Source: a virus
Taxonomy: Duplodnaviria > Caudoviricetes
IMG/VR virus record: IMGVR_UViG_3300031088_000782
Location: 128,001 to 192,000 of that record
DNA: 64,000 bases
Strand: one strand, 5' to 3'
Of this stretch, positions 15,571 to 30,928 are shown piece after piece. The translations under genes were made by a program, and so were the position numbers. Every line of letters begins with the position of its first letter. Position 1 is the stretch's first letter. Below the pieces are notes generated by a model. It was not told the DNA's origin, did no database searches, and saw only the letters and a list, made by a program, of their open reading frames with translations.

Positions 15571-15996
15571 ATGACTGAAATAACAGCAACTAAAGAAAAT
15601 ATTTTAGAAGAAAATTCAAGTAAGATTTTTGACAACATCATGAGTATTATCAAAGATGTAAGCAAAGCAACTCGATCTTCTTATGTCAAAGAAAAAATTG
15701 TTGAACAAGAAAAATACATTTACGAAGCAAAAGTAGATAATGCTTTACATAGATTTATTCAAATTGATGAACTTTTGAAACATGCGAAACAGCCAAAATT
15801 TTATCATTCATCAGAAAAGAAACAGAAGATTGAAGAAAATTTAGCCTTTTGGGAAATTAAAAGAGAAGAAAGTATTCAGAATTTCAAGAAAATCGCTCTA
15901 TCCATTCCTGACAATATGAATAGAGATGAGATCAGCAGACTTGTTTCACTGTATTTTGAAAAGTTTGAAATTATTGCTGAAACCGAGATTATTTAA
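15571..15996 (+). CDS. Hypothetical protein
   Basis: 141-aa ORF with codon style like its neighbours. Confidence 0.65.
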   Translation: MTEITATKENILEENSSKIFDNIMSIIKDVSKATRSSYVKEKIVEQEKYIYEAKVDNALHRFIQIDELLKHAKQPKFYHSSEKKQKIEENLAFWEIKREESIQNFKKIALSIPDNMNRDEISRLVSLYFEKFEIIAETEII

Positions 15997-17133: not shown

Positions 17134-17206
17134 TCCCCTGTAGCTCAATTGGCAGAGCATTCGGCTGTTAACCGGAGGGTTCTTGGTTCAAGTCCAAGTG
17201 GGGGAG
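17134..17206 (+). tRNA. tRNA-Asn(GTT)
   Basis: Cloverleaf; loop CTGTTAA. Confidence 0.92.
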
Positions 17207-17403
17207 CGCGGCTGAAAAATCATTTGGCCTTTATTAAATATATGCGAAATAATTGAAGCACCACGCAATGAAACTGTTCAAAATATTCCTTTTCGCAGGT
17301 TTATGATTTTGTTTTGAATAAGTCTTGTAAGATAATGATTTCTATGATTCAAGGTGGAACAAAGATAAATAATCTTTGCTTGATAATATTAATCATTATA
17401 TTT

Positions 17404-17475
17404 GCCCCTCTAGCTCAGAGGCAGAGCAACGGTCTTTTAAACCGTGGGTCGAGATTTCGAAATTCTCGGGGGGCA
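17404..17475 (+). tRNA. tRNA-Lys(TTT), copy 1
   Basis: Cloverleaf; loop CTTTTAA. Confidence 0.9.
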
Positions 17476-17478
17476 CAA

Positions 17479-17695
17479 TTGGGACTGCACACACTGTCGA
17501 TGTGAAGCGGTCCTGAGTTAAACCACTGATCTGCCATGTGTAGAATTCAGTATCTTTCTCCGTTGTATCGCAGTATGACGGAGAATGCTTATCGCTATCT
17601 GACAGTAGCGGTAATAGAAAACGAGTTATTGATGCACGTCTGTCAGCGTCATGGATAATCATTGCGACAATGACCGGCATGGATAGTCCGGTTAA
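17479..17695 (+). ncRNA. Candidate structured RNA (multi-hairpin, possible pseudoknot)
   Basis: GC-richer spacer with stems TTCTCCGTT/GACGGAGAA, TTATCGCTAT/GTAGCGGTAA, ACCGG/CCGGT; loop CTGACA complementary to downstream TGTCAG. Confidence 0.5.
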
Positions 17696-17709
17696 AAACG
17701 TTTTCATAT

Positions 17710-17782
17710 TCCCTTATAGCTCAGTTGGCAGAGCGTTTGACTGTTAATCAAAATGTCCCTGGTTCGAGTCCAGGTGGGGGAG
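17710..17782 (+). tRNA. tRNA-Asn(GTT)
   Basis: Cloverleaf; loop CTGTTAA. Confidence 0.92.
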
Positions 17783-17863
17783 CACAGTGACAAAAATTGC
17801 TGTAACAATGCTCTAGAAGCGTTACGTAAATAATTGATAAAATATTCATCAATTATTTAATGT

Positions 17864-17937
17864 AGCTGGGTGGGGAAGTTAGGTATCCCGTCGTGTTCAT
17901 AACTCGAAGATCGTTGGTTCAAATCCAACCCTAGCCA
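17864..17937 (+). tRNA. tRNA-Met(CAT), initiator-like (1:72 mismatch)
   Basis: Loop TTCATAA; A1:C72 mismatch. Confidence 0.8.
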
Positions 17938-17967
17938 CTATTTTTAACAAATATTGTTGAAAAATAT

Positions 17968-18042
17968 CCAGATATAGGAAAGTTTGGTCATTCCGCCTAG
18001 TTAGGGGCTAGGAGATCGCAGGTTCGAATCCTGCTATCTGGA
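17968..18042 (+). tRNA. tRNA-Pro(AGG)
   Basis: CCAGATA/TATCTGG acceptor; CCTAG-TTAGGGG-CTAGG. Confidence 0.88.
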
Positions 18043-18179
18043 CAAATGTTATAGAAGTATCATAAGCCATGAGAAAATATAACATTGATAAAAGTTGAAC
18101 ACCCTCGTAAAAATGTTTGCGAATATATTCTAGGCTAGTTTATATTGGGCTGAACGCGCATTTTCTTTTATCGCCTTAA

Positions 18180-18252
18180 TCCTCTATGGTGGAATGGTTT
18201 AACACTCTTGGCTCTTAACCTTGAGATCTAGGTTCGAATCCTAGTGGGGGAA
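18180..18252 (+). tRNA. tRNA with CTT (Lys) anticodon on a Gln-like body
   Basis: Loop CTCTTAA; weak anticodon stem; D and T arms resemble tRNA-Gln at 19643. Confidence 0.65.
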
Positions 18253-18254
18253 CT

Positions 18255-18327
18255 GTGGTCGTAGCTCAATTGGTAGAGCGTCTGCTTGTGGCGCAGATGG
18301 TTGGGGGTTCAAGTCCCCTCGATCACC
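18255..18327 (+). tRNA. tRNA-His(GTG)
   Basis: TCTGC-TTGTGGC-GCAGA; C73. Confidence 0.88.
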
Positions 18328-18411
18328 CTATGGGACGGCAATCCCTAGTGTTTTATCATCGGGTCTGTTTTGCCGAACAGAATAAGATGTAGCCAACACT
18401 TTAAACATGGC

Positions 18412-18485
18412 TCCCTAATGGTCTAGTTTGGTTAGGGCACATCCGCGTGGAGGGTGGGGCGTAGGTTCAAATCCTACTTAGGGAA
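18412..18485 (+). tRNA. Atypical tRNA, GTG in a non-canonical loop
   Basis: TCCCTAA/TTAGGGA acceptor and T arm intact; loop GCGTGGA lacks U33. Confidence 0.55.
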
Positions 18486-18616
18486 CGGTTTCGAAAGGAA
18501 CTACTGAAATGCGCAATTTCGAGTGGATAGTATCATTGGGTGCTGTTTATCTTAAATAGTTAAGCTGACTATGCAGGTGAGACAGTATAAGATGTAGTTA
18601 CCACTATAAACAAAAC

Positions 18617-18689
18617 TCCCTGATAAGTCTCAAGAGGTAGAGCTGGCAATACGCGTCCGGTTGTGGGTTCAAGTCCCACTCATAGGGAA
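18617..18689 (+). pseudogene. tRNA-like element with bulged acceptor and no clear anticodon loop
   Basis: TCCCTGA...TCATAGGGA; T arm GTGGG-TTCAAGT-CCCAC. Confidence 0.5.
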
Positions 18690-18707
18690 CAATTCTGAAA
18701 AGAATAT

Positions 18708-18780
<73 letters not shown>

Positions 18781-18803
18781 CTTGATTACAAAAGTAATCA
18801 TAT

Positions 18804-18874
18804 GCGGATATGGTGTAGTGGTAGCACAAGAGCTTCCAACCCTCTTGGTCAGAGTTCGATTCTTTGTGTCCGTG
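18804..18874 (+). tRNA. tRNA of ambiguous identity (Gly-like body; loop register CCA or TCC)
   Basis: AGAGC-TTCCAAC-CCTCT with a C:C closing mismatch; G73. Confidence 0.65.
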
Positions 18875-18967
18875 CTGAATATGCAAAAATATTCATAAAT
18901 TTTTAACAAATATAACCTTTGGGAAGTAATTAAGGTTCGATTCTGTCTGTTGTATTTGTTAAATTAT

Positions 18968-19040
18968 GGGGGTATGGCGCAATTGGTAGCGCATCTGCTT
19001 TGCAAGCAGAGGGTTACGGGTTCGAGTCCCGTTATCTCCA
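18968..19040 (+). tRNA. tRNA-Ala(TGC)
   Basis: G3-U70; loop TTTGCAA. Confidence 0.92.
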
Positions 19041-19041
19041 C

Positions 19042-19116
19042 AGCTGGGTAGAGAAGTTCGGTTATCTCGTCAGGTTCATATCCTGAAGATCGTGGGTTCA
19101 AATCCCACCCTAGCCA
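19042..19116 (+). tRNA. tRNA-Met(CAT), initiator-like
   Basis: TCAGG-TTCATAT-CCTGA; A1:C72; abuts tRNA-Ala. Confidence 0.85.
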
Positions 19117-19214
19117 CAATCTAAATCACAGGATGATTTAGCGGATTCCAGGGGTAATTCGTTAGCGTTCCATTGAAAAATGGTAGACAAGATTCTAAAA
19201 AGCAGACCCAATAT

Positions 19215-19287
19215 GGCGGCAGTGGCAGACTGGTAATGCGCTTGACTGTGGCTCAAGTATATGCGGGTTCAATTCCCGTCTGTCGCC
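19215..19287 (+). tRNA. tRNA-His(GTG)
   Basis: G-1, C73; loop CTGTGGC. Confidence 0.9.
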
Positions 19288-19326
19288 CAAATTTTTATTA
19301 ATATTATAAAATATGTTAATAAATTT

Positions 19327-19400
19327 GGTCCTATAGCTCAGTTGGTTAGAGCATTACCTCGACACGGTAAAGGTCACTGGTTCGAATCCAGTTAGGATCA
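19327..19400 (+). tRNA. tRNA-Val(GAC)
   Basis: TTACC-TCGACAC-GGTAA (C33 is unusual). Confidence 0.85.
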
Positions 19401-19442
19401 CGTATTGTTTAAATATTAATTAATATTTTAAATAATATCTAT

Positions 19443-19532
19443 GGAAGTGTGGTCGAGTCTGGCTTATGGCACCTGTTTTGAACACAGACGTAGCGTAAAA
19501 AACTACCGGGGGTTCGAATCCCTCCACTTCCG
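19443..19532 (+). tRNA. tRNA-Ser(TGA)
   Basis: Long variable arm; loop TTTGAAC; G73. Confidence 0.88.
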
Positions 19533-19642
19533 CTTTATACAAATAATAATTGTATAATTTTCACAATTTATTTGACAAAATAATTGACTAATGCTATATT
19601 TAAGTTAATAAATAAATTTGGTAATTAAATAGTGGAAAATAT

Positions 19643-19714
19643 TGTCCTATGGTGTAATCGGCAACACAATGGTTTCTGGTACCGTTATTCTAGGTTCGAG
19701 TCCTAGTAGGACAG
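19643..19714 (+). tRNA. tRNA-Gln(CTG)
   Basis: Loop TTCTGGT. Confidence 0.9.
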
Positions 19715-19748
19715 CTTAGAGGATAAAACCTCTTTAAAAATATTTTAT

Positions 19749-19820
19749 GCCTCTATAGCTCAAAGGAAGAGCATATGGTTTCTACCCATCAGGTTGGGGG
19801 TTCGAATCCCTCTAGAGGTG
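19749..19820 (+). tRNA. tRNA-Arg(TCT)
   Basis: Loop TTTCTAC. Confidence 0.88.
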
Positions 19821-19874
19821 CTGAGAATAAAATCTCAAAAATTCAATAATATTTTTATAATATTATTGAAATAT

Positions 19875-19946
19875 GGCGGTGTGTCCGAAAGGTTTAGGTA
19901 ACAGTCTGCAAAACTGTGTATGCCGGTTCGAGTCCGGTCACCGCTT
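19875..19946 (+). tRNA. tRNA-Cys(GCA)
   Basis: Loop CTGCAAA; U73. Confidence 0.9.
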
Positions 19947-20046
19947 CGAAGTTTGCCTGAAGCCAACTCAGCAAATGCTTGATAGGTAGCCCCTTGAATA
20001 GCGGCGGAATCGCGTTTTCGCTACTGAAGGATAACAAACTTCTCCA

Positions 20047-20119
20047 GCCTCCATATTTCTAATGGATAAGATACTCGGCTACGAACCGAATGATGTGGGT
20101 TCGAATCCCGCTGGAGGTA
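20047..20119 (+). tRNA. tRNA-Arg(ACG)
   Basis: Loop CTACGAA. Confidence 0.88.
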
Positions 20120-20239
20120 CTCACAGGCTGATTTTCCCAGCTTGTTAAAATAAATGGGATTAAGAAGGCGGGAACAAGATCTCCCGTTATGCTTATGATA
20201 AGGTCACTCGGACTTAATGCGCTGTTTGGCTTTATCTTT

Positions 20240-20313
20240 GGCTGTGTAGCTCAGTTGGTTAGAGCGTTGCCCTGTCACGGCAAAGGTCGCGGGTTCGAGT
20301 CCCGTCACGGTCG
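20240..20313 (+). tRNA. tRNA-Asp(GTC)
   Basis: Loop CTGTCAC. Confidence 0.92.
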
Positions 20314-20409
20314 CGTTTAAACAATATTTCCACAACATTGTTTAAATATTATTGAAATTTGACAAACATTTCATAAAATGCTATAATTTCAATATACAAC
20401 AAAATATAT

Positions 20410-20493
20410 GCATCAGTAAAGCGTAATTGGCAGCGCCGGTGACTGTAAATCATCTCTCTTCGGGGTCTGGGGGTTCAAGTCCCTCCTGATGCA
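20410..20493 (+). tRNA. tRNA-Tyr(GTA)
   Basis: Long variable arm; loop CTGTAAA. Confidence 0.88.
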
Positions 20494-20581
20494 CTTTGAT
20501 AAATGGTAAATAATATTTATCAAATCATTTGACAACATTAAACAAGTGTGATAGAATGAATAAAGAAAATTAAATAAATAT

Positions 20582-20656
20582 GGGGATGTAGTGTTTAACG
20601 GTTCAGCATATGAGTCTTCCAAACTTAGGGTGCGGGTTCGAATCCCGTCATCCCCT
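20582..20656 (+). tRNA. tRNA-Gly(TCC)
   Basis: Loop CTTCCAA; U73. Confidence 0.9.
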
Positions 20657-20739
20657 CGCTTAATTAAATTTGACAATTATTCTTCAATATGATAGAATAA
20701 TTATTGAAATTAGTTAGTTAAAGAAAAAATGAATAGTAT

Positions 20740-20812
20740 GCCCCATTGGAGTAGTGGTTATCTCACCTGACTTTCAATCAGGAGAAGGCCGGATCGTAAC
20801 CGGCATGGGGTA
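20740..20812 (+). tRNA. tRNA-Glu(TTC)
   Basis: Loop CTTTCAA; variant T loop ATCGTAA. Confidence 0.88.
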
Positions 20813-20949
20813 CTAAATCTTAGAGTAAAATCTAAGTATTGAATAAAATTATAGAATTTTATTCAATAGGCTTTAAATAGCCCAAGTTGATATAAGCAAA
20901 CTTGACTACCTCGGGTGTAACGACCTTGAAAAGAAACGGGCTTATAAAT

Positions 20950-21043
20950 GGAAGTGTGGCTGAGCTAGGTTTAAAGCATCTCACTGCTAATGAGACATAC
21001 CTCACAAAATGAGGTATCGCAGGTTCGAATCCTGTCACTTCCG
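20950..21043 (+). tRNA. tRNA-Ser(GCT)
   Basis: Long variable arm; loop CTGCTAA. Confidence 0.92.
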
Positions 21044-21209
21044 CTGAAATGTAGATTATTACTGAAATTAATTGAATAAGTCGACAATTCAATTAATAAA
21101 GGTTGATCACAATTTATTCATTTTGGTCGCTCCTTGATGAATTTGTGAAATAATAGATCGTCAGCTTAGGCGGCTGAAGGACTAGTGAGACCCTAGCATT
21201 TCAACATTT

Positions 21210-21282
21210 GCGAAAGTAACTCAATTGGTAGAGTTTCTGACTTCCAATCAGAATGTTGCGGGTTCAAGTCCCGTCTTTCGCT
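21210..21282 (+). tRNA. tRNA-Gly(TCC)
   Basis: Loop CTTCCAA; U73. Confidence 0.92.
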
Positions 21283-21373
21283 CAAAAATTTCATAATAAT
21301 TAAAATATTTTTATAAAACTTTAAAAATGAGTTGACAACGAAATTTAGTTGTGTTAGTATTATATATATAAGC

Positions 21374-21407
21374 AACACAGCGGATTGAAAAGTTAATAGT
21401 GGAAAAT
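21374..21407 (+). promoter_or_regulatory. Repeated leader motif, boxA-like (copies near 19617, 23906, 27489, 30766)
   Basis: AACACAGCGGATTGAAAAGTTAATAGTGGAA lies just downstream of a TTGACA promoter and upstream of tRNAs. Confidence 0.6.
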
Positions 21408-21410
21408 TTT

Positions 21411-21486
21411 AGGAATAATATGTTTTACTTTATATTTAAAAGTAAAGTATTAGGGTATATTTTAGGTTCGATTCCTATTATTCCTA
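21411..21486 (+). ncRNA. tRNA-like RNA with acceptor and T arm but an AT-rich hairpin replacing the D/anticodon arms
   Basis: AGGAATA/TATTCCT-A acceptor; TAGG-TTCGATT-CCTA; central TTTACTTT/AAAGTAAA hairpin. Confidence 0.6.
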
Positions 21487-21492
21487 CGAGGA

Positions 21493-21567
21493 TCGAAAAG
21501 TCATGGGTTCGATTCCCATATAGTCCACATATTCATGGGCTATTGATGAAATGGTATCATATTTTGA
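21493..21567 (+). ncRNA. Circularly permuted tRNA-like module A
   Basis: TCGAAA-AGTC-T arm ATGGG/CCCAT-ATAGTCC-[ACATATTCAT]-GGGCTAT-TG-D arm ATGA/TCAT-A-TTTTGA. Confidence 0.8.
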
Positions 21568-21628
21568 CAGGACCGTGAAACTCGGCAAACTTAGTGAGAG
21601 GCTAAGGAAATAGATGCAAATTCTTTAT

Positions 21629-21703
21629 GGGGGTATGGCGCAATCTGGTTAGCGCATTTCGCTGATAACGAAAAGGTTCCTGGTTCAAATCCAGGTGCCC
21701 CTA
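21629..21703 (+). tRNA. tRNA-Ile(GAT)
   Basis: Loop CTGATAA. Confidence 0.9.
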
Positions 21704-21823
21704 CGAAACAAAGCTTCGCAACTTTGTTTAAATATTGGCTAAATGGTGTACAACATTTAGTTCAAACTATCAAAATAGACAGATCATCTATAAATGGTAG
21801 AATAAGTTTTGACATTCCAGGAG

Positions 21824-21897
21824 TCAGGCGGTTGCAGGTTCGAGTCCTGTCAGTTAGCACACAAGTTAATTGTAACTCAATAGGTTAGAGTTCCTGA
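21824..21897 (+). ncRNA. Circularly permuted tRNA-like module B
   Basis: TCAGG-CGGTT-T arm GCAGG/CCTGT-CAGTTAG-[CACACAAG]-TTAATTG-TA-D arm ACTC/GAGT-T-CCTGA; the stem extends with CATTC/GAATG. Confidence 0.82.
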
Positions 21898-21920
21898 TGA
21901 ATGGTTTGTTTAGAACTTTT

Positions 21921-21994
21921 GGCTTGCTATCCCAATTGGTAGAGGAAACGGATTCAAAACCCGTTCAGTCTGAGTTCGAGTCTCAGGTAAGCTA
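21921..21994 (+). tRNA. tRNA-Leu(CAA), short variable arm type
   Basis: Loop TTCAAAA; A73; no long variable arm. Confidence 0.8.
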
Positions 21995-22072
21995 CTTTGG
22001 CTAAACACGGTACCATGTTTAGTTCAACCCATTGGTCTAGAACAATGGAAGATAGTTATTATTAGATAATTG

Positions 22073-22151
22073 ATTTTAGAGATCTGGGTTCAAGTCCCGG
22101 TGGCTCCCGCATGGGGGTTATGGAATAATTGGGAAATTCGCTTCATGAAAT
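22073..22151 (+). ncRNA. Circularly permuted tRNA-like module C (Pro-like arms)
   Basis: T arm CTGGG/CCCGG-TGGCTCC-[CGCATG]-GGGGTTA-TG-D arm GAAT/ATTC; irregular closing stem. Confidence 0.72.
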
Positions 22152-22169
22152 ATTTGATAATAATTATTA

Positions 22170-22243
22170 CAGGGCATAGGATAACTTGGCATTCCGTCTG
22201 GTTTGGGTCCAGAAGATTAGGGGTTCAAATCCCCTTGCCCTGA
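22170..22243 (+). tRNA. tRNA-Pro(TGG)
   Basis: C1-G72; loop TTTGGGT. Confidence 0.9.
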
Positions 22244-22347
22244 CGAAATTTTTTTGGAATTTTTTTAAAATCCTTGTATTTTAGGGATTTTTGAACGATC
22301 TTTTTGATAAAACAATTGTAAGAAGATTTATCGAAAAGGATTAAAAA

Positions 22348-23421
22348 ATGAAAAGTGAAATTGATTTTTCTTGGCAAGATTTAAGTGATGAAGAATTTAT
22401 AAATCATTCTAAAAATTTTACTTCTAAAGAAAAATTTGCTCAATCCTATGGTTACAAGAAATTGAGCAAAAAACTCAATAAAAGATTTAAAAAACTTGGA
22501 ATTGATTATAAAAAGATTATTGAACCTATCTCAAAAGAAGAGTTTAAAAAGATTACTGAAGAATCGAAGTCTATTACAGAAGTGATAGATAAAATGATAG
22601 ATAATACTTCAAGCCGTAGAGCATACTATAATTTTGTTAAAAAATTGTCGAGAGATTATAATATTCCTTTGCCAAAATTTAATTACACTGAATCTGCGCG
22701 TAGGGCGTTTAAAACAGTAACGATTCCCGATGAAGAATATTTTGCTAAAAACACTCTTCGACAAGGACCAGCGACACGAAGACGTCTTATTAGAATGGGC
22801 TGGGAATATAAATGCTCTATCCCCGAATGTTTTCTTTCGCAAGATGTAGAAATTGTTGGAGAACAAGTTTTTTGGGTTGGACAATTATTAACCTTACAGG
22901 TAGATCATATTGATGGTGATCATTTAAATAATGAGTTGTCTAATTTGAGATTTCTTTGTCCAAATTGTCATTCAGCTTCTTCTACTTATGCCGGAAGAAA
23001 TAAAGTTTTCAACAATTCTTCTAAAAAGACAGAGAAAACTAATTCGTTAAATGGAAAGATAAAGTATAAGAAGAAGCCTGACAATCTTTGCGAATGTGGA
23101 ACAAAAATTTCAAGAAAAAGTAATTCTTGTATAAAATGCGAAGCTTCTAATAGAACAGGTGTATATAAGACAGATTATCCTCCACTTTCTGAAATGATTG
23201 CTAAAATTAAAGAATTAGGATATAGTGCTTATGCTAAGGAATTGGGTGTTTCTGATAATGGTATTCGGAAACATTTAAGAAGAAATAATATAAATCCTTT
23301 GCCTAAGAAAATTCATGTTTTTATTGTTAAAACTTGTATTGATTGTAATAATGAGATAAGTAACAAAACTGCTGTTCGTTGTCCTAAATGTGCTGTTGAT
23401 TTCAGGTATTATAGACAATGA
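22348..23421 (+). CDS. HNH homing endonuclease within the tRNA array
   Basis: LTLQVDHIDGDHLNNELSNLRFLCPNCHS; extra Cys-rich C-terminal motifs. Confidence 0.9.
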   Translation: MKSEIDFSWQDLSDEEFINHSKNFTSKEKFAQSYGYKKLSKKLNKRFKKLGIDYKKIIEPISKEEFKKITEESKSITEVIDKMIDNTSSRRAYYNFVKKLSRDYNIPLPKFNYTESARRAFKTVTIPDEEYFAKNTLRQGPATRRRLIRMGWEYKCSIPECFLSQDVEIVGEQVFWVGQLLTLQVDHIDGDHLNNELSNLRFLCPNCHSASSTYAGRNKVFNNSSKKTEKTNSLNGKIKYKKKPDNLCECGTKISRKSNSCIKCEASNRTGVYKTDYPPLSEMIAKIKELGYSAYAKELGVSDNGIRKHLRRNNINPLPKKIHVFIVKTCIDCNNEISNKTAVRCPKCAVDFRYYRQ

Positions 23422-23425
23422 TTAT

Positions 23426-23499
23426 TCCCCGGTGCTATGCTGGCATTGGCGACTGAGCTTTGGACTCAGGAGGCGTAGGTTCGATTCCTACTCGGGGAG
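23426..23499 (+). tRNA. tRNA-Gln(TTG)
   Basis: CTGAG-CTTTGGA-CTCAG; G73. Confidence 0.82.
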
Positions 23500-23553
23500 C
23501 GTTATAAAAATGATCAACAAGTTTTAAAAAATTTTTATAATAAATAATTTTAC

Positions 23554-23638
23554 GCGCATGTGATGAAATTGGTAAACATGACGGTCTAAGAAGCCGTTGC
23601 TCGTAAAGAGTTTGGAGGTTCAAGTCCTCTCATGCGCA
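23554..23638 (+). tRNA. tRNA-Leu(AAG)
   Basis: ACGGT-CTAAGAA-GCCGT; long variable arm; A73. Confidence 0.9.
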
Positions 23639-23682
23639 CAAAATATTCTTGAAATATTTCATTAATATTTTTAAAATTTTTA

Positions 23683-23832
23683 AACAATCAGTGGCGAAAT
23701 ATATTGGGATACGCGGCTGTTTAGTAGCCTAAGTTTTTATAAATATGGCGAAACACGGCTATACGGTGAAACTTGCTGGGAAACTTTCAAGTGGCACTTA
23801 TGTGTGTAGGTTCGAGTCCTACCTGATTGTTT
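23683..23832 (+). ncRNA. About 150-nt Leu-like composite tRNA with two D-arm-like segments
   Basis: AACAATCAG/CTGATTGTT acceptor; TGGCGAAA..TACG occurs twice; variable arm and T arm GTAGG/CCTAC intact. Confidence 0.55.
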
Positions 23833-24059
23833 AATTGTTCCACAATGAACTTGACAAATAGTTGAATATGTTATATAATTATTTGTATAAGTTTGAATAA
23901 AACTTTTGTTGTTTGAAATTTGAATAGTGAAAAGTTTAGCATACCGGAATGATTGGTCCTGATAAATATTGTTACATGTAGTTAGTTTGTATAATATTTA
24001 TGGAAAGTGTAACAAATCCGAAGGGTAGGTTGGGAAACCTTTATGCGCACATCCCATTA

Positions 24060-24132
24060 GGCTCTGTAGCTCAGTTGGGAGAGCATTCGATTGAAGATCG
24101 AAGGGTCAGCGGTTCAATCCCGCTCGGAGCCA
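24060..24132 (+). tRNA. tRNA-Phe(GAA)
   Basis: Loop TTGAAGA. Confidence 0.92.
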
Positions 24133-24168
24133 CTTATACGCCTTTATAAGCGTATAAACATAAGATAT

Positions 24169-24243
24169 GGACCTATGGAGCAGTCTGGAGTGCTCGTTGC
24201 CCTGTCACGGCAAAGGTCGCGGGTTCAAGTCCCGTTAGGTCCG
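24169..24243 (+). tRNA. tRNA-Asp(GTC)
   Basis: Loop CTGTCAC. Confidence 0.92.
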
Positions 24244-24298
24244 CTGTGTTTAGTAGTTCGAAACGCTGAATACAAATGTTGATATATCACATTTATGC

Positions 24299-24374
24299 GG
24301 CTGTATAGCATAGCCTGGTCTAATGCGCCTTGCTCATAACGAGGAGATCGTTGGTTCGAATCCAACTACAGCTA
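24299..24374 (+). tRNA. tRNA-Met(CAT)
   Basis: CCTTG-CTCATAA-CGAGG; elongator-like. Confidence 0.85.
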
Positions 24375-24432
24375 CAAAAAATATTTAAAAGTTTTGAATA
24401 TTTTTGATACAATAATTTTATTAATAAATTAT

Positions 24433-24503
24433 TGCCCCATAGTGTAATGGCAACACCACGGTTTTTGGTACCGTTATTCTAGGTTCGAGTCCTAGTGGGG
24501 CAG
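24433..24503 (+). tRNA. tRNA-Gln(TTG)
   Basis: Loop TTTTGGT. Confidence 0.9.
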
Positions 24504-24672
24504 CTTGTTGAAAACAAACATACTTGTCAGTTGAAACACTAACTACAGACTGACAACTTACACTGTGTGGTGACAGTTGGTAAGTTAATTCTATTTAATC
24601 GTAAATCGAAAATAGACGTTAATAGGAATGGGATGTTTCTATGCGATTGAGTGCGTTAAACTTAATCACATT

Positions 24673-24745
24673 GCCACCTTAGCTCATCTGGTAGAGCAGC
24701 TGTCTTGTAAACAGCAGGTGATCGGTTCGAGTCCGATAGGTGGCT
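24673..24745 (+). tRNA. tRNA-Thr(TGT)
   Basis: Loop CTTGTAA. Confidence 0.92.
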
Positions 24746-24871
24746 CTTAAATAGGTCAAATTGCCTTTTGGTAATGAGATTTTTTAAAATATTCTAAGTA
24801 AAGAAAATATTGATGAACTATTCTGAATTACGTAATAAGTTTAGTTCTGATATATGAGTATTTATATGAAT

Positions 24872-24937
24872 TCTGTTGTAGCATAAATACTAATGCGCTG
24901 TTGAAAGGGTATTCAAGTGAAAATCTTGACAACAGAT
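24872..24937 (+). pseudogene. 66-nt tRNA-like element with a collapsed anticodon arm
   Basis: TCTGTTG/CAACAGA acceptor, D arm GCAT/ATGC, T-like TCAAG/CTTGA. Confidence 0.5.
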
Positions 24938-24964
24938 GAAAAAAGGGTTTGCGAAAGCTTCTCC

Positions 24965-25038
24965 TACTGTGTAGTTTAATGGCAAAACACTAGGCTCTTA
25001 AAGCTTAGCATATAAGGTTCGAATCCTAATCACAGTTG
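24965..25038 (+). pseudogene. Degenerate tRNA-Lys(CTT)-like gene with a 9-nt anticodon loop
   Basis: CTAGG-CTCTTAAAG-CTTAG; mismatched T stem. Confidence 0.55.
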
Positions 25039-25045
25039 AAAATAT

Positions 25046-25117
25046 GCCTCTCTAGCTCAGAGGAAGAGCAACGGTCTTTTAAACCGTGGGTCGAGATTTC
25101 GAAATTCTCGGGAGGCA
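25046..25117 (+). tRNA. tRNA-Lys(TTT), copy 2
   Basis: Near-identical to 17404 with compensatory acceptor changes. Confidence 0.9.
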
Positions 25118-25287
25118 CTTTAATTCATAAATTTTTAGCTAATATTTGTGAATTTTGATGTAGATAGTTGATGACTATTGGCATGAGTGAAAAGGTTGTT
25201 CATTATGGAACATTTTGAACGCGGTTCGAGTCCGATTAAGCTCAACACCTAATAACTGGTCTGATTTAATCACGGATAATCTTGGAT

Positions 25288-25356
25288 TAAGCTAACTACA
25301 ATGGAAACATGAGAATGGTAGGATAGCGATGGTAGGTTCAATTCCTACTGGCTTAA
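25288..25356 (+). pseudogene. tRNA-like element with scrambled central arms
   Basis: TAAGCTA/TGGCTTA-A acceptor; GTAGG-TTCAATT-CCTAC. Confidence 0.45.
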
Positions 25357-25388
25357 TGATTAGATGAAAAACTATTTTCGCTTTTAAT

Positions 25389-25461
25389 GCCACCTTAGCT
25401 CAGTCGGCAGAGCAGCTGTTTAGTAATCAGCAGGTCATCAGTTCAATTCTGATAGGTGGCT
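25389..25461 (+). tRNA. tRNA-Thr(AGT)
   Basis: Thr body as at 24673; loop TTAGTAA. Confidence 0.88.
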
Positions 25462-25542
25462 CTTGTGGATAAATTCATCAACTATTTTTTTGATAATCTA
25501 TTCATAAATTGTAAAACATTATGGATAAAGGAGGATAGAAAT

Positions 25543-26094
25543 ATGAGTATTGATTTTATAAGTGGAAATGTGAATTTAGAAGAAAAATATTTTAAAAATT
25601 ATTCTACAAGCGAAGATACTTATTATGTAATTACAAAAATCCTTTCTTTGAATAATGATGTTAAACTACCTCATCCTGTTAGCAAAAATGAAGATAACTA
25701 TGCTTATACTTTGTCATATCATTACAATGACAAAAAATCTATTCAAGGATTAGTTCGACATGACCCTGATTTAGTTGTATTTGAGTATACCTCTTATGTA
25801 TCTGTAACAGATCCTAAACTATGGACTGATTTCACAGTAACAGGACATGATGTTCTTGTTTCTTTACCTTTCAGAAGTTTGGACGATATTTCACAATTTA
25901 TTATCCAAAATGTTCAACAAGAAAAAACTTTGGATAATCTTATTGGAAATTTTTATGATCATATCAATTCAGTAGAAGTTTTTGATGGATTGTATTCACG
26001 AACATTTTTACCTACTGATAATACACGTCAACTACTTAGAGAAAATGGAACAGTTAGTGAAGTTTCTCATTCTTTTGCTGAAAAAATAAAGTAA
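25543..26094 (+). CDS. Hypothetical protein within the tRNA array
   Basis: AAGGAGG RBS before ATG 25543. Confidence 0.7.
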   Translation: MSIDFISGNVNLEEKYFKNYSTSEDTYYVITKILSLNNDVKLPHPVSKNEDNYAYTLSYHYNDKKSIQGLVRHDPDLVVFEYTSYVSVTDPKLWTDFTVTGHDVLVSLPFRSLDDISQFIIQNVQQEKTLDNLIGNFYDHINSVEVFDGLYSRTFLPTDNTRQLLRENGTVSEVSHSFAEKIK

Positions 26095-26347
26095 TTTTGT
26101 TGAAAGATTGGATAAAAATTATGAAAAAAATATTTGTCTTTATCAATGGATGAAATTGTATCATATGATGATGTTATTGAAGATTATAATTTTTCAAAAG
26201 AAAATGATTATATTGGCTCTTTAGAAGATTTTATTAATGATGAATATGAAGAAGTAGGGGATTAAATTTACCTATATTTAGTAATCTTTCATTCTAAATT
26301 TGATAAAATAACAAAAGGGTATTTTATTATTTGAAAGAATTATTGAT

Positions 26348-27187
26348 ATGAAAATTGACACAACTAGATATGGTTATATTTATCGCATAACAAACTTATT
26401 AGACGGAAAGACCTATATTGGAAAACATAAGATTAAGAAAAATGAAGAGTTTTTTGACTATATGGGATCAGGAAGATTAATTTGTTATGCGATAAATAAA
26501 TATGGAATAGAAAATTTTAAGAAAGAAATTATTTGCTATACAGATTTAGATGATTCTTTATCTATTTTAGAGTATAAATATATTGATATTGAACTTTCAA
26601 ATAATAAGTCAGAATATAATATACAAAGAAGCGAAAGTTCTTTAAAAACTGTTCTTGAAAACCTTGATTTTTCTGATGAAGATTTATTAAAATGGTACTT
26701 TGAAGATGAAATGTCATACAATGATATAGCAATAAAACTTAATTGTTCTATTCCTACTATATATAATTATATGGAAAAGTTTAGACAAATTGATGAAAGA
26801 TTTAAGAATATTAAACATGGTGATAATAGGGGAAAATCTACTTGGTCTCCAGAAGCAGCTCAAAAAGGACTTAGTATTTCTAATAGAAAAATTAAATGTG
26901 AAAATTGTTCTAGACAAATAAGTTTTGCAAATTATTCTAGACATTTAAAAGCATGTTTGAATGGAACGAGCCAACATGAATGTTATTATAATAATTGCGA
27001 ACAATTAATAGGATCAAAAAGCAAATTATGTAAAAAACATTTTTTAGAATCATTAAAAAATAATGATATTAACAATTCTAAAAATTTTGGCGACAGTGTT
27101 AAACAAGGTGGAATTACAGCATCTCATAATAGATGGCATGTTAAAAGAAATATAGTTAGTGATAAATGTTCTTTATGTAAAAGTTGA
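26348..27187 (+). CDS. GIY-YIG (Seg-like) homing endonuclease
   Basis: GYIYRITNLLDGKTYIGKH...YMGSG; HTH and Cys-rich tail. Confidence 0.9.
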   Translation: MKIDTTRYGYIYRITNLLDGKTYIGKHKIKKNEEFFDYMGSGRLICYAINKYGIENFKKEIICYTDLDDSLSILEYKYIDIELSNNKSEYNIQRSESSLKTVLENLDFSDEDLLKWYFEDEMSYNDIAIKLNCSIPTIYNYMEKFRQIDERFKNIKHGDNRGKSTWSPEAAQKGLSISNRKIKCENCSRQISFANYSRHLKACLNGTSQHECYYNNCEQLIGSKSKLCKKHFLESLKNNDINNSKNFGDSVKQGGITASHNRWHVKRNIVSDKCSLCKS

Positions 27188-27332
27188 CAACTGAATATTG
27201 ATTATGATATAATTAATTTGTTGTTAAAAAATGAATAAAATAAAATTTTGTTAAAGATTTTAATTATTGTCATAAATAAAGTTGCATAAGCGATTTAAGT
27301 GTGATATAGTTTAAATTGTAAAACAAAAGCAA

Positions 27333-27409
27333 GCCTCTGTAGCTCAGTTTGGTTTCAGAGCATCCGGCTCTTAACCGGAGGGTCGTGGGTTCGAATCCCA
27401 CCGGGGGCA
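27333..27409 (+). tRNA. tRNA-Lys(CTT)
   Basis: TCCGG-CTCTTAA-CCGGA. Confidence 0.92.
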
Positions 27410-27526
27410 CTTTATTAAATTAAGAAATTTAATAAAAGTTACGAAATGATTTGACAAGTTTGAAAAAATTTGTTAAGATTGTCAAAGTAACACAGCGGAT
27501 TGAAAAATTAATAGTGGAACATATAT

Positions 27527-27606
27527 GGCGGGTTCGCATAGCGGCAATTGCGGCTGACTGTAAATCAGCTCCTTCGGGTTCGTGGGTTCGAGTCCCTCAC
27601 TCGCCA
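27527..27606 (+). tRNA. tRNA-Tyr(GTA)
   Basis: Loop CTGTAAA. Confidence 0.9.
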
Positions 27607-27654
27607 CAAGGTTCGTTAGATGAAAAACACCAGCATTGTCAAAATCTAACATTT

Positions 27655-27727
27655 TCTCTTATAGCTCAATTGGCAGAGCATTCGACTGTTAATCGAATGG
27701 TTCCTGGTTCGAGTCCAGGTGGGAGAG
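27655..27727 (+). tRNA. tRNA-Asn(GTT)
   Basis: Loop CTGTTAA. Confidence 0.92.
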
Positions 27728-27936
27728 CTTGAATATTTGTTTGACTGGAGTGATAAAACCAAAAGGTTAAGGCAGATAAAATATTCAAAGGTTAATGAAA
27801 TATTTGAAACTTTTATGAAATGGTTATTCAATAAAGTTCCTAAAATGGATAAAACTATTAGGGTTCGATTCCCTTTCTCAACGTTTAACCAACAACGAGG
27901 CTGGTGCTAGTTTGAAGAAAATATTTTATTAATTTT

Positions 27937-28010
27937 TTCCTGAGACAGCATTGGAAACCAAAAGGCTTTGCGCAAGTCTGGCGGATTGGGTTCGAAACCC
28001 AACTAGGAAG
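27937..28010 (+). tRNA. Atypical tRNA with GCG (Arg) anticodon
   Basis: AGGCT-TTGCGCA-AGTCT; T arm TTGGG/CCCAA; aberrant D arm. Confidence 0.55.
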
Positions 28011-28011
28011 C

Positions 28012-28098
28012 TGGAGTAAGTCACACGGCTAGTGACAGCTATAGACCGTATGGATATAGTCAAGATCGCAACTTGAGAGGTTCGACTCCTCGCTCCTT
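28012..28098 (+). ncRNA. tRNA-like RNA with long D stem, long variable arm and 11-nt central loop
   Basis: GTCAC/GTGAC; CTATA-GACCGTATGGA-TATAG; CAAG/CTTG; GAGG-TTCGACT-CCTC. Confidence 0.45.
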
Positions 28099-28410
28099 AT
28101 TTTTAAAAACATTTTCGCAAGATAGATAAATTTCTCGTATCGGCAAAATATGTAAGTAATCAACATTGAGTCTCGAATGAAAATGAGCGGAAACTTTTCA
28201 ACCTACAATCGAACAAAAGGTTGATGGAGATTGTTAGTTTAATTGAAAAACAGTTCTTTAATGATTTGGCAAAAGTCACTTTATTAAAGAAAAGACGAGA
28301 ATATCATAATTTCTCACAATTACGGTTCTTGAAAAAGAATTAAAAATATTTGCGAAACAATTTGACATTGAGAAAATTTTTTGGTAAGATTATTGTTGTA
28401 ACAAGGAAAT

Positions 28411-28482
28411 GCCCCTCTAGCTCAGAGGCAGAGCAACGGTCTTTTAAACCGTGGGTCGAGATTTCGAAATTCTCGGGGGGCA
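28411..28482 (+). tRNA. tRNA-Lys(TTT), copy 3
   Basis: Identical by eye to 17404. Confidence 0.9.
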
Positions 28483-28551
28483 CAAGTATTCTACAATTTG
28501 ACAAACAATTGTGAAATATGGTAGAATATGATTAAAGAAAAGTTAATATAT

Positions 28552-28633
28552 GCCCTTGTGGTGGAATTGGTAGACACGCTTGACTCAAAATCAAGTTTCG
28601 CAAGAAGTGTGGGTTCAAGTCCCACCGGGGGCA
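28552..28633 (+). tRNA. tRNA-Leu(CAA)
   Basis: Loop CTCAAAA; long variable arm. Confidence 0.92.
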
Positions 28634-28753
28634 CCGTTCTTTTGTGGTGACGAATGGAAGTTTTAAGAAAGTGCAAAATTTTTAAAACACACTACACGAA
28701 CCAAAATTCTTTTCAAAGGAATTGCACTCTTGCGATTATGAATGTTTGGATAT

Positions 28754-28826
28754 TCCTCCGTAGCTCAGTTGGCAGAGCATTCGACTGTTAATCGAAGGGT
28801 CGCTGGTTCAAGCCCAGCCGGGGGAG
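28754..28826 (+). tRNA. tRNA-Asn(GTT)
   Basis: Loop CTGTTAA. Confidence 0.92.
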
Positions 28827-29021
28827 CGCAATATTTTATCAAATATTTCAGAAAATTATTTGATAAAATATTACAATAAGAGACAAAAGTTCCTTTCACC
28901 ATTAGGAACTTTTGGTTCAGATACGAAAAATCTGAATTAATGGAATGGTGATCAATATGGACTAACCACCATATTTAAAATCTTTGCTAATGACTTTGGT
29001 TAAGATATTAGCAAAGAACAT

Positions 29022-29094
29022 GCGCCTATAGCTCAGTTGGTAGAGCGCCTTCTTTACGCGGAGGATGTCAAAGGTTCGATTCCTTTTGGGCGCA
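29022..29094 (+). tRNA. tRNA-Val(TAC)
   Basis: Loop TTTACGC. Confidence 0.9.
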
Positions 29095-29176
29095 CAACTT
29101 GAAAGTGAGTTCGATACTCACCGTATGGATAATAACCCACCATACGAATAAGGATATTGAGTAGAGTTTACTTGTG
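29093..29176 (+). ncRNA. Circularly permuted tRNA-like module D
   Basis: T arm GTGAG-TTCGATA-CTCAC, then CGTATGG-[11 nt]-CCATACG 7-bp hairpin, weak D arm, CACAA/TTGTG closure. Confidence 0.6.
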
Positions 29177-29246
29177 GTAACGGTTCGATTCCGTTGTAAT
29201 AGTCTGGGTGGCTTTATCATAAATGGTATGAACATGAGTAATTTTG

Positions 29247-29319
29247 TTTGCTGTAACTCAGTTGGCAGAGTGCCCGGTTGAAAATCGGGAAGTCAATGGT
29301 TCGATTCCATTCAGCAACG
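29247..29319 (+). tRNA. tRNA-Phe(GAA), variant (1:72 mismatch, G73)
   Basis: CCCGG-TTGAAAA-TCGGG. Confidence 0.75.
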
Positions 29320-29484
29320 CTTTTGCGACAAAATTACACAAACTGAAAATTTGGTAATCGTTCTGGCTTGCTTTCACGCAGGTTCAGAACTTGGCAAAAC
29401 GGGCTGTGACCGCCTAGAATGATTTATGTATGGGATTATTCATTAATCATTAAAAAGTTCGCTTATGAATCCCCATAGGCGTTT

Positions 29485-29555
29485 GCAAGTGTAGTTTATT
29501 GGTAAAACACCTGCGCTCCAGCAGGAAAAGTAAGTTCGATTCTTACCGCTTTGCT
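29485..29555 (+). pseudogene. Degenerate tRNA-Gly-like gene
   Basis: 6-nt loop GCTCCA; extra T in the acceptor 3' strand. Confidence 0.55.
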
Positions 29556-29757
29556 CTTATAGTCTGAAACACACTATAATCCACAAGTGTTTAAAAATTT
29601 GAAGAAAGTTCGCCACTTGAAGCGAAATGAGCTATCCGTCATAAAGGTAGCAACCAGCAAACGGTTTTCAAATTATTCAAAGTTTGTAGTAACAGCTTGG
29701 ATAAACTGTTGCGGAATCTTTTGTAGCATTAGATTTACTAAACAAATGCTACTGTAA

Positions 29758-29830
29758 GTGGTAGTGGCCTAATTGGTAAGGCATCTCGTTGCCAACGAGA
29801 GGATTGCGGGTTCAAGTCCCGTCTGCCGCA
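29758..29830 (+). tRNA. tRNA-Gly(GCC)
   Basis: TCTCG-TTGCCAA-CGAGA; A73 instead of the usual U73. Confidence 0.85.
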
Positions 29831-29879
29831 CAAAACAGTGAAGTAGAGACATCTATGTTTCTGTTTTAGAATAAATTGA

Positions 29880-30038
29880 AGAATAGTGATCCATGTTGGT
29901 AGAGATAGGGCACTAATGACCTAAGTTTTGTATAAGATGTTATTCAAAATATGGCGTGAATGTCCTAAAAGATGTAAAATAAAATGAAAAGATTATGGAT
30001 GCAGTCTTATACACGCAGGTTCGATTCCTGTTATTCTT
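29880..30038 (+). ncRNA. tRNA-like RNA with about 100 nt replacing the anticodon arm
   Basis: AGAATAG/TTATTCT acceptor, D-like ATC..TTGGTAGAGAT, T arm GCAGG/CCTGT; internal TATAAGAT/GTCTTATA stem. Confidence 0.5.
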
Positions 30039-30048
30039 TAATTATTTT

Positions 30049-30133
30049 GGAAGTGTGGCTGAGCGGCTTAAGGCACTCGCTTGGAAAGCGAGCATAGGTA
30101 ACACTATCGCAGGTTCAAATCCTGTCACTTCCG
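30049..30133 (+). tRNA. tRNA-Ser(GGA)
   Basis: Loop TTGGAAA; long variable arm. Confidence 0.92.
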
Positions 30134-30183
30134 CGTTTATGAATATTTAAAATAATATTATTGAATATTTTCATAAATAATAT

Positions 30184-30257
30184 GGGGATGTTGCATAATG
30201 GTAGTGCCTCTGCCTTCCAAGCAGACGGTGCGGGTTCGATTCCCGTCATCCCCTCCA
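30184..30257 (+). tRNA. tRNA-Gly(TCC), with encoded CCA
   Basis: Loop CTTCCAA; ends TCCA. Confidence 0.93.
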
Positions 30258-30406
30258 GGGACGCGTGAACATTAAATTAAGTCCAAGTTGCGATGGATAC
30301 TGGTTTAGTGCTGTTACACTAATATTTTAGACCGCTAATCTAAAATTCGAAATTCAGGACAGAAATGTTGCTGATACTTGGGATTCGATACCCAAGCGTT
30401 CCACCA
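30258..30406 (+). ncRNA. 149-nt tRNA-Ala/tmRNA-like RNA with encoded CCA
   Basis: GGGACGC/GCGTTCC-ACCA with G3-U70; T arm CTTGGG-ATTCGAT-ACCCAAG; multibranch insert. Confidence 0.7.
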
Positions 30407-30468
30407 ATTTAAAACAATGAAATAATATTGTTAAAATTCTTGTTCATACATTTTACAAGAACAAATAT

Positions 30469-30541
30469 GGGGGTTTAGCTCATCCGGTAGAGCATCTGCT
30501 TTGCAAGCAGAAGGTGAGGGGTTCAAGTCCCCTAACCTCCA
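30469..30541 (+). tRNA. tRNA-Ala(TGC)
   Basis: G3-U70; loop TTTGCAA. Confidence 0.92.
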
Positions 30542-30542
30542 C

Positions 30543-30617
30543 AGCTGTGTAGAGAAGTTCGGTTATCTCGTCAGGTTCATATCCTGAAGATCGTGGGTTC
30601 AAATCCCACTCTAACCA
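30543..30617 (+). tRNA. tRNA-Met(CAT), acceptor-decayed duplicate of 19042
   Basis: Body matches 19042; acceptor AGCTGTG/TCTAACC has several mismatches. Confidence 0.6.
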
Positions 30618-30800
30618 CGATTGTCAAAAAATATTGAAAAATAATTTGACAATAATTATTAATTATGCTAAGATTAACTTGTTAAATCAAATTGAGGACT
30701 TATCAAGAAGATAACGAGATTATAGATTTGACAAGCGTTAAAAAATAGTTTATAATTAATAATATAAAGCGGTTTGGAAACTTAATAGTGGAAAATATAT

Positions 30801-30874: not shown

Positions 30875-30928
30875 CGCAAAGCGGTTGTAAGTGACGCGGG
30901 TGCAATGTGTGCGGCGGAACTTTCGTAT

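Follow-up and report, generated by a model that had tools for sequence, protein, structure and literature searches.

Permuted tRNA-like modules with a YrlA-like architecture in the tRNA array of a giant mobile element

Results

Three permuted modules in a segment of the tRNA array

The IMG/VR record IMGVR_UViG_3300031088_000782 (309,534 bp; 35% G+C), a 'provirus' cut from the 681,645-bp metagenome contig ena:ERZ27247443:k141_1824489, carries 66 transfer RNA (tRNA) genes. All of them are on the plus strand of the window that we analyzed, a stretch of 64,000 nucleotides (bases 128001–192000 of the record; coordinates below are window positions), and most stand within 17134–32629. A first reading of this window, made from its letters (the sequence-only reading), had proposed that three circularly permuted tRNA-like modules, A, B and C, opened at the anticodon loop, lie in this array. 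Reading of the sequence and a descriptor scan of the whole record found the three modules at the sites proposed.

The segment concerned is read on the plus strand. It starts with a promoter-like site (21332–21360; TTGACA and TAGTAT, the latter with a TG, 17 nt apart), identified by its match to the consensus at 10 of 12 positions, and continues with an element that we call X, module A, a 60-nt tail, tRNA-Ile, unit B, tRNA-Leu(caa), unit C and tRNA-Pro. Element X (21411–21489), directly 5' of A, is predicted to fold into a degenerate tRNA-like RNA with a 7-bp acceptor and a T arm, in which an 8-bp hairpin with a 7-nt loop replaces the D and anticodon arms; it scored 15.8 bits on the Rfam tRNA model, which is under the cut-off.

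Module A (21493–21567) is a complete permuted cloverleaf, as judged from its sequence, from the descriptor scan and from the behavior of its re-permuted form in ARAGORN. It opens with the closing strand TCGAAA (21493–21498) and a variable AGTC, followed by the T arm (21503–21519; ATGGG/TTCGATT/CCCAT), the 3' acceptor strand ATAGTCC (21520–21526), A73, a 9-nt linker (21528–21536) and the 5' acceptor strand GGGCTAT (21537–21543). After a TG come the D arm (21546–21560; ATGA/AATGGTA/TCAT) and the second closing strand TTTTGA (21562–21567). The flanking GGATCGAA...TTTGAC to which the sequence-only reading had drawn attention is present, and is merely this anticodon-like stem itself. A 3' extension with two small hairpins (21568–21628) reaches from A to the 5' end of tRNA-Ile(gat) (21629–21704, a tRNA call), with few or no differences listed in relatives. 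We looked in this extension for a tag like that of transfer-messenger RNA (tmRNA) and rejected the candidate, the sole frame starting with alanine (ANLVRG) being unlike known tags.

Unit B begins with a leader (21705–21803), which stretches from the end of tRNA-Ile to the closing helix and is predicted to form three hairpins. The second of these (21735–21765) and the first hairpin of unit C (21997–22027) are paralogues, with two covarying pairs. The candidate Y-like RNA of unit B (21804–21918), defined by its fold, its Rfam YrlA match and its relatives, consists of a closing helix (21804–21819/21902–21918) around a permuted core (21824–21897), which runs from TCAGG (21824–21828) through the T arm (21834–21850), CAGTTAG (21851–21857), a linker, TTAATTG (21866–21872) and the D arm (21875–21891) to the closing strand CCTGA (21893–21897). 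The unit ends 2 nt before tRNA-Leu(caa) (21921–21995, a tRNA call).

After that tRNA, unit C has a leader with two predicted hairpins (21996–22050) and a candidate Y-like RNA (22051–22169), recognized by the descriptor scan and by folding. Its module (about 22084–22139) comprises the T arm (22084–22100), TGGCTCC (22101–22107), a 6-nt linker, GGGGTTA (22114–22120) and the D arm (22123–22139); the discriminator is a C. There is no anticodon-type stem in the tRNA register, and its place is taken by an 18-bp AU-rich closing helix (22051–22068/22151–22168). The order of parts that the sequence-only reading had given for the three modules is complete in A and B, and C departs from it at this point. 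The 3' end of unit C is at the first base of tRNA-Pro(tgg) (22170–22244, a tRNA call).

The acceptor helices of A (GGGCTAT/ATAGTCC, plus A73) and C (GGGGTTA/TGGCTCC) contain a G3:U70 pair of the alanine type, which B lacks. In all three modules the discriminator is able to pair with the base before +1, resulting in an 8-bp helix. The unconstrained minimum free energy fold of 21705–21920 contained the three hairpins, the closing helix and the full permuted cloverleaf (z = -4.0 against shuffled sequences), and that of 21996–22169 contained two hairpins and the 18-bp closing helix around the acceptor hairpin (z = -3.6).

The modules depart from chance and from the tRNAs of the array

The descriptor asked for a 5-bp T stem, a TTCNA loop, 7/7 acceptor pairing across a gap of 1–25 nt, and a D arm. 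On both strands of the 309,534-bp record, it retrieved A, B and C and two weak others. When the closing strands were joined by an artificial 7-nt loop and the sequences re-permuted, ARAGORN recognized A and B as canonical tRNAs; it did not recognize C, because C has no anticodon-type stem in the tRNA register.

All 71 strict T-arm motifs of the record are on the plus strand; 11 lie outside called tRNAs, 10 of these in the array. Simulation gave a probability of 1.2e-3 for finding both 7/7 acceptor pairing and a 4-bp D arm with GG after a T arm, and of 4e-5 when a 5-bp closing stem was required as well. About 0.09 and 0.003 such cases are thus expected among the 71 T arms, compared with 3 and 2 observed. 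The halves of the modules are only about 70% like any of the 66 tRNAs of the array, which is no more than generic tRNA similarity, and the modules are therefore not recent debris of these tRNAs. Both results agree with the sequence-only reading, which had argued against a chance juxtaposition of decayed halves. They also disfavor the explanation that it had named as its possible undoing, namely that each half is the remnant of a separate linear tRNA.

Substitutions in relatives preserve the structure

We compared the modules with related contigs from runs X2 and X3 (coded organisms), X4 (farm), X5 (bovine), X9 (abattoir) and X13 (soil), all counts of substitutions being minimum ('at least') figures. 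The modules are retained by related elements from four other metagenome runs. The compensatory changes that the sequence-only reading had called for were found at three places. In the acceptor of B, pair 4-69 changed from A-U to G-C (21854 T>C with 21869 A>G; X4 and X9). In the closing helix of B, a C-G pair became U-A (21813 C>T with 21908 G>A; X4), and in the leader hairpin of unit C, 22009 G>A was accompanied by 22014 C>T (X9).

Pairing was also kept in 7 of the 9 single stem changes listed (21495, 21850, 21853, 21857, 22099, 22103 and 22106). In B, G.U pairs became Watson-Crick pairs at 21850 (T stem), 21853 and 21857; in the closing stem of A, G21495>A (X3, X4 and X5) turned a U.G into a U-A pair; and in C, the pairs survived 22099 G>A, 22103 G>A and 22106 C>T. 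Changes at unpaired positions fell in the D loop at positions 16/17 (21881 and 21882), at T-loop position 59 of C (22094, which is T, A or C depending on the relative) and in the linkers (21863 and 22110). Among the changes listed, none affected G18G19 or the core of the T loop. To judge from these sequences, the substitution pattern is that of a working tRNA fold, the unpaired changes being found at places that vary in real tRNAs.

In the relative from X5, B and tRNA-Leu(caa) are both missing, with a joint from 21755 to 22018 at which 10 bases overlap. Units B and C thus have the character of a tandem duplication that varies in copy number.

Comparison with YrlA-type Y RNAs

YrlA RNAs have been defined by a tRNA-like domain, in which a capped acceptor-like stem stands between the T and D arms, by a GNCGAAN0-1G box in the 5' strand of the Ro60-binding helix, and by a Ro60 gene at a distance of at most 4 kb (Chen et al. 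2014, PMC4201824). The order of parts (a closing helix made from the RNA ends, T arm, capped acceptor-like stem, D arm) is common to YrlA and to our modules, fully so in A and B; C differs in the junction to its closing helix. The bases that make the tertiary contacts of tRNA (U8, A14, G18G19 and the T loop) are kept in the modules as they are in YrlA. The acceptor helix of 7 bp is the same as in Mycobacterium smegmatis YrlA, the one that has a stem of this length and that undergoes cleavage by RNase P and CCA tailing in vivo (PMC4201824). Unlike YrlA, A and B retain a full anticodon-type stem in the tRNA register. A further difference is that here three copies, two of them with G3:U70, lie in what is predicted to be one transcription unit.

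Against the Rfam YrlA model (RF02553, gathering threshold 69 bits), B was the best match in the record, with 31.4 bits over model positions 23–89, that is to say in the tRNA-like part only. The region of A (21465–21594) scored 20.2 bits, and C was not matched. The sequence-only reading had recommended a comparison of native and re-permuted forms with Rfam models; the YrlA scores of the native sequences were low, and it was ARAGORN that recognized the re-permuted forms of A and B. Models of our own were of little help: MAFFT did not keep the acceptor and D arms of the three modules in register, and a covariance model built from B alone was too specific, ranking 3' halves of tRNAs above A and C.

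Like modules are present in the tRNA arrays of other elements

RF02553 was also run over 30 other IMG/VR records. The hits were below threshold, and many turned out on inspection to be dimeric tRNAs, which are known false positives of YrlA models (PMC4201824). Genuine modules that overlap no ARAGORN tRNA were present in the tRNA arrays of 5 of the 30 records (G002, G016, G006, G013 and G015), G002 and G016 being apparently the same phage type. G006, G013 and G015 have one or two modules each.

G002 contains three Y-like copies (L020:12310–12460, L020:12872–13022 and L094:1449–1599), each with an outer stem (AAGACYCU/AGRGUCUU), a hairpin that holds ACAGCA, and a permuted tRNA-like core, the T loop being TCCGACT in two of them. 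They covary in the outer stem, the 5' hairpin, the T arm and the acceptor helix, they carry ...CTAACAGCA... in the 5' strand, and they have no G3:U70. The same genome encodes a DUF2828 protein (1165–1899). The permuted tRNA-like core within a closing stem and the location in a phage tRNA array are shared with A, B and C. By contrast, the ACAGCAA box of the G002 type is absent from our three modules, its sole plus-strand match in the array (31976) lying in a spacer, and our record is without DUF2828.

In G015, a gene for a 520-amino-acid TROVE/Ro60 protein stands inside the tRNA array (L108:943–2505, minus strand). Two YrlA-like RNAs follow it downstream on the same strand (L108:389–497 and 770–830), interleaved with tRNA-Thr and tRNA-Phe, and they score only 36–40 bits on RF02553. 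Since these RNAs are adjacent to a Ro60 gene, sub-threshold scores on this model are normal for phage members. Like A, B and C, they are set among the tRNA genes of a large mobile element; unlike our record, G015 has a Ro60 gene in the array. G006, a complete record with direct terminal repeats, has a module, and neither TROVE nor DUF2828 was found in it.

A 21-mer made of the T arm and the 3' acceptor strand of A (ATGGGTTCGATTCCCATATAGTCCA) was found in linear order in four unrelated metagenome contigs (L078:~300–395; L079:~1700–1795, with the same in L081; and L080, minus strand, ~50–135). These linear elements have free ends, a G3:U70 acceptor (5' strand GGGCTAT in three of the four, GGGCCTA in L080) and, in one case, an encoded CCA; they have no normal D or anticodon arm and matched no Rfam family. 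In an unrelated viral contig (L077:6136–6220), a linear tRNA-like RNA is identical to module B over 24 bases of the T arm plus acceptor strand; its acceptor stem is 13 bp long and its anticodon loop is oversized.

Other searches for relatives were unproductive. Exact or gapped DNA patterns derived from B, from A and from the shared hairpin retrieved only unrelated contigs (L077–L086) from viral and metagenome collections, and L082–L086 were dismissed as chance matches to the patterns. The ORF (open reading frame) at 22348–23421 proved to encode an HNH endonuclease, whose 71 loci belong to unrelated elements. Contig L087, a cluster relative of ORF 15571–15996, stops short of the modules; protein types seen in it (PASTA, G5 and NlpC/P60) also occur among the window proteins. 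BLAST searches against cultured phages matched canonical tRNA genes and nothing else. No RNA run contained the stretch, a result that does not show it to be silent.

Comparison with permuted tmRNA and permuted tRNA genes

Two-piece tmRNA has the same gene order as the modules (T arm plus 3' acceptor strand, linker, 5' acceptor strand), and its alanine-type G3:U70 acceptor recurs in A and C, not in B. On the Rfam models cyano_tmRNA and tmRNA_permuted, A gave weak scores of 21.1 and 14.6 bits (cut-offs 70 and 47), through its T arm and acceptor part only. Unlike two-piece tmRNA, the modules have neither a tag frame nor pseudoknots, and they carry a true D arm. Furthermore, the element already has a standard one-piece tmRNA (50464–50814).

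The permuted tRNA genes of Cyanidioschyzon merolae and Thermofilum encode a complete tRNA, anticodon loop included, and are processed by a splicing endonuclease. As in our modules, the 3' half is upstream of the 5' half and the two are joined at the acceptor ends; the anticodon loop that is encoded there does not exist here.

Other genes and RNAs of the window

Strict T-arm motifs outside called tRNAs, beyond those of the modules, occur at 18663, 23806, 25332, 27986, 29105, 29179 and 30015, all on the plus strand and in the array. After the one at 29105 there is a perfect 7-bp hairpin (CGTATGG/CCATACG) and no D arm; the orphan T arm at 29179 comes next. At 24966–25037, ARAGORN also called a tRNA (31 bits on the Rfam tRNA model) whose anticodon, TTA, would make it a reader of the UAA stop codon, and at 29485–29554 one with a two-base anticodon. 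The array is a zoo of non-canonical tRNA-like RNAs.

Besides the tRNA genes, the array carries genes for HNH and GIY-YIG endonucleases, TilS and a CCA-adding enzyme. The last (40131–41567, plus strand; Pfam PolyA_pol head domain, PolyA_pol_RNAbd and tRNA_NucTran2_2) could tail the acceptor end of the modules if this were opened. Directly 5' of it is a gene for an ADP-ribosyltransferase of the ADPrib_exo_Tox family, the pair spanning 39218–41567. The window also contains a small signal recognition particle (SRP) RNA, which in this mobile element lies directly 5' of the one-piece tmRNA (50369–50816 for the two); the tmRNA has the tag ANANKNAYALAA, and no SmpB gene was found in the 309-kb record. 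The element has its own DNA polymerase III alpha subunit, split into two ORFs (52832–58366) of which one, at 52832–54310, holds the PHP domain and the first part of the NTPase domain, and the other, at 55592–58366, the remainder; a clamp-loader (delta') subunit gene sits between them. No Terminase_6N was found in the record. The viral assignment of the record is uncertain, and it may represent a phage or another giant mobile element.

Discussion

The interpretation that we favor, and hold to be probable, is that A, B and C are genuine, selected non-coding tRNA mimics with a YrlA-like (Y-RNA-like) architecture, and not tRNA genes or pseudogenes. Their anatomy, their excess over chance, the structure-preserving changes in their relatives and the like modules in phage arrays all agree with it. 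Several observations weigh against it. All Rfam scores of the modules are far under the gathering scores. The GNCGAAN0-1G box is absent from A, B and C: A reads aTCGAAaaG, and its G21495 is an A in the relatives from X3, X4 and X5, so that the flank of A can no longer be regarded as the Ro-binding stem of a Y RNA, as had been suggested. TROVE, DUF2828 and RlaP were all lacking from the 309,534-bp record, itself part of the 681,645-bp parent contig, and the phage Ro60 protein of G015, used as a query, found no match there either; a Ro60/TROVE gene is thus missing not only within about 4 kb on the same strand, as YrlA would have it, but anywhere in the record. Pairing is lost through two of the stem changes, 21852 A>T (X9) and 22101 T>C (X2 and X9), and in the X4 relative the outer closing helix has some changes that are uncompensated. 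The loss of B in the X5 relative indicates that any given module copy is dispensable. Finally, the region of A folds no better than shuffled sequences (z = -0.7).

What the sequence-only reading had proposed as a Y-like or YrlA-type mimic thus stands as far as anatomy, conservation, the local match of B and the existence of phage modules (one set of them beside Ro60) are concerned, whereas membership of the modules in the YrlA family is not established. They are built like YrlA, as a variant that lacks the known Ro60-binding box and for which no Ro60 partner gene was detected.

As to their transcription, processing, partner and biological role, we infer the following. A transcript initiated at the promoter-like site would carry X, A, tRNA-Ile, B, tRNA-Leu, C and tRNA-Pro, and excision of the three tRNAs by RNase P and 3' processing would free RNAs of roughly 115–215 nt. 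The A RNA would owe its 3' end, and unit B its 5' end, to the processing of tRNA-Ile; the 3' end of unit C would result from 5' processing of tRNA-Pro. Because B ends 2 nt before, and C at, the first base of the next tRNA, RNase P would cut their 3' ends. The 5' and 3' parts of each RNA would pair as a closing helix where a tRNA has its anticodon arm, and the middle would fold into a tRNA-like shape, with T arm, D arm with G18G19, U8/A14, and an acceptor helix of 7–8 bp capped by a loop of 4–9 nt. The modules are not decoding tRNAs, since they have no anticodon loop and their flanks pair with each other. The RNA would then present a tRNA elbow and an acceptor helix, with no decoding, to proteins that recognize tRNAs. 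By analogy with YrlA, the most likely role is that of a protein-binding scaffold or competitor; the partner might be a Ro60-type ring provided by the host or by the rest of the element, or another tRNA-binding factor. The sequence-only reading had also considered that the modules might be decoys, which anticodon nucleases would be unable to cut. Since the acceptor helix is 7 bp long, like that of M. smegmatis YrlA, RNase P may nick the linker, and the new 3' end may receive its tail from a CCA-adding enzyme, so that the molecule would be in two pieces.

This last possibility leads to an alternative that overlaps our favored reading and differs from it in taking the opened, charged form as the active one. 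RNase P and RNase Z would remove the linker, CCA would be added, and A and C would be charged with alanine. The resulting alanyl-RNAs, which have no anticodon, would lure tRNA-targeting toxins away as acceptor-end decoys, act like tmRNA, or be donors in non-ribosomal reactions. It would make use of the 7-bp acceptor helices with their single-stranded linkers, of the G3:U70 pairs of A and C, and of the CCA-adding enzyme and tmRNA that the element encodes. It would also fit the weak matches of A to permuted tmRNA models and the occurrence of the A-type T arm and acceptor (GGGCTAT ... ATAGTCC-A) in linear form, with free ends, in four unrelated contigs, one of which encodes CCA. However, B and the G002 copies are without G3:U70, so that charging would not be class-wide, and the discriminator can be drawn into an 8-bp helix in all three modules. 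A tag reading frame and pseudoknots are lacking, the Rfam tmRNA scores are 14–21 bits for cut-offs of 47–70, and the record has no SmpB. We regard this alternative as unlikely, though with a real chance of being correct, and give a small one to the proposal that the modules are Ro60-independent mimics, which, once opened by RNase P, tailed with CCA by the element's own enzyme and, for A and C, charged by alanyl-tRNA synthetase, would be two-piece look-alikes of aminoacyl-tRNAs that lack an anticodon and would shield translation of the element, either by soaking up host factors that attack tRNA acceptor ends or by feeding a non-ribosomal reaction. That the modules act only in cis, as tRNA-shaped punctuation for RNase P and RNase Z or as protection for their neighbors, with no role in trans, seems improbable. 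Such punctuation is established in other polycistronic transcripts, and B and C do end right at the 5' ends of the next tRNAs, each after conserved hairpins; yet the canonical tRNAs on their flanks already supply processing sites, and the conserved D arm, G18G19 and closing helix exceed what a processing signal needs.

Quite improbable, in our opinion, is the explanation that the modules are non-functional remnants, in which tandem duplication, deletion or recombination in a fast-evolving, endonuclease-bearing array has placed the 3' half of one tRNA before the 5' half of the next copy. The array is indeed full of duplicates and odd tRNA-like pieces, with its 11 T arms outside called tRNAs; it contains HNH and GIY-YIG endonuclease genes; copy number differs between relatives; and dimeric tRNAs are known to mislead YrlA models (PMC4201824). 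Still, three independent cases would have to have arisen in 660 bp, with matching halves in each, no half resembles any present tRNA of the array beyond generic similarity, the substitutions in relatives preserve the structure and are in part compensatory, the closing helices reach beyond the tRNA part, and the same design is found in unrelated phages. Extremely improbable, finally, is that these are true circularly permuted tRNA genes of the Cyanidioschyzon or Thermofilum type, which would be circularized or ligated, and opened at the acceptor, to give decoding tRNAs. Re-permuted A and B are perfect cloverleaves, and an Rnl2-type RNA ligase is encoded at positions 309013–309465 of the record. 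Against this, the sequence encodes neither an anticodon loop nor a bulge-helix-bulge junction, the flanks of B, and likewise those of C, are joined by pairing in a long helix, and C has no anticodon stem in the tRNA register. Permuted tRNA systems known so far require the splicing endonuclease of archaea and eukaryotes, an enzyme that is not known to occur in bacteria. The sequence-only reading had noted that the window holds no Rsr or RtcB gene, and this extends to the whole record: a search beyond the window for TROVE/Rsr and RtcB yielded neither, nor was Rnl1 found, although the Rnl2-type ligase is present. Its suggestion of permuted pre-tRNAs matured by ligation is not supported, as there is no anticodon loop, no RtcB in the record, and a stem in B and C that runs into the closing helix. 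A permuted intron-exon arrangement of the group I type was also rejected, since the flanks are too short and are occupied by tRNAs.

If the modules described here and in G006 truly do without Ro60, the job of the tRNA-mimic module would be independent of an element-encoded Ro60. More generally, the annotation of large tRNA arrays misses a recurrent class of genes that are not tRNA genes.

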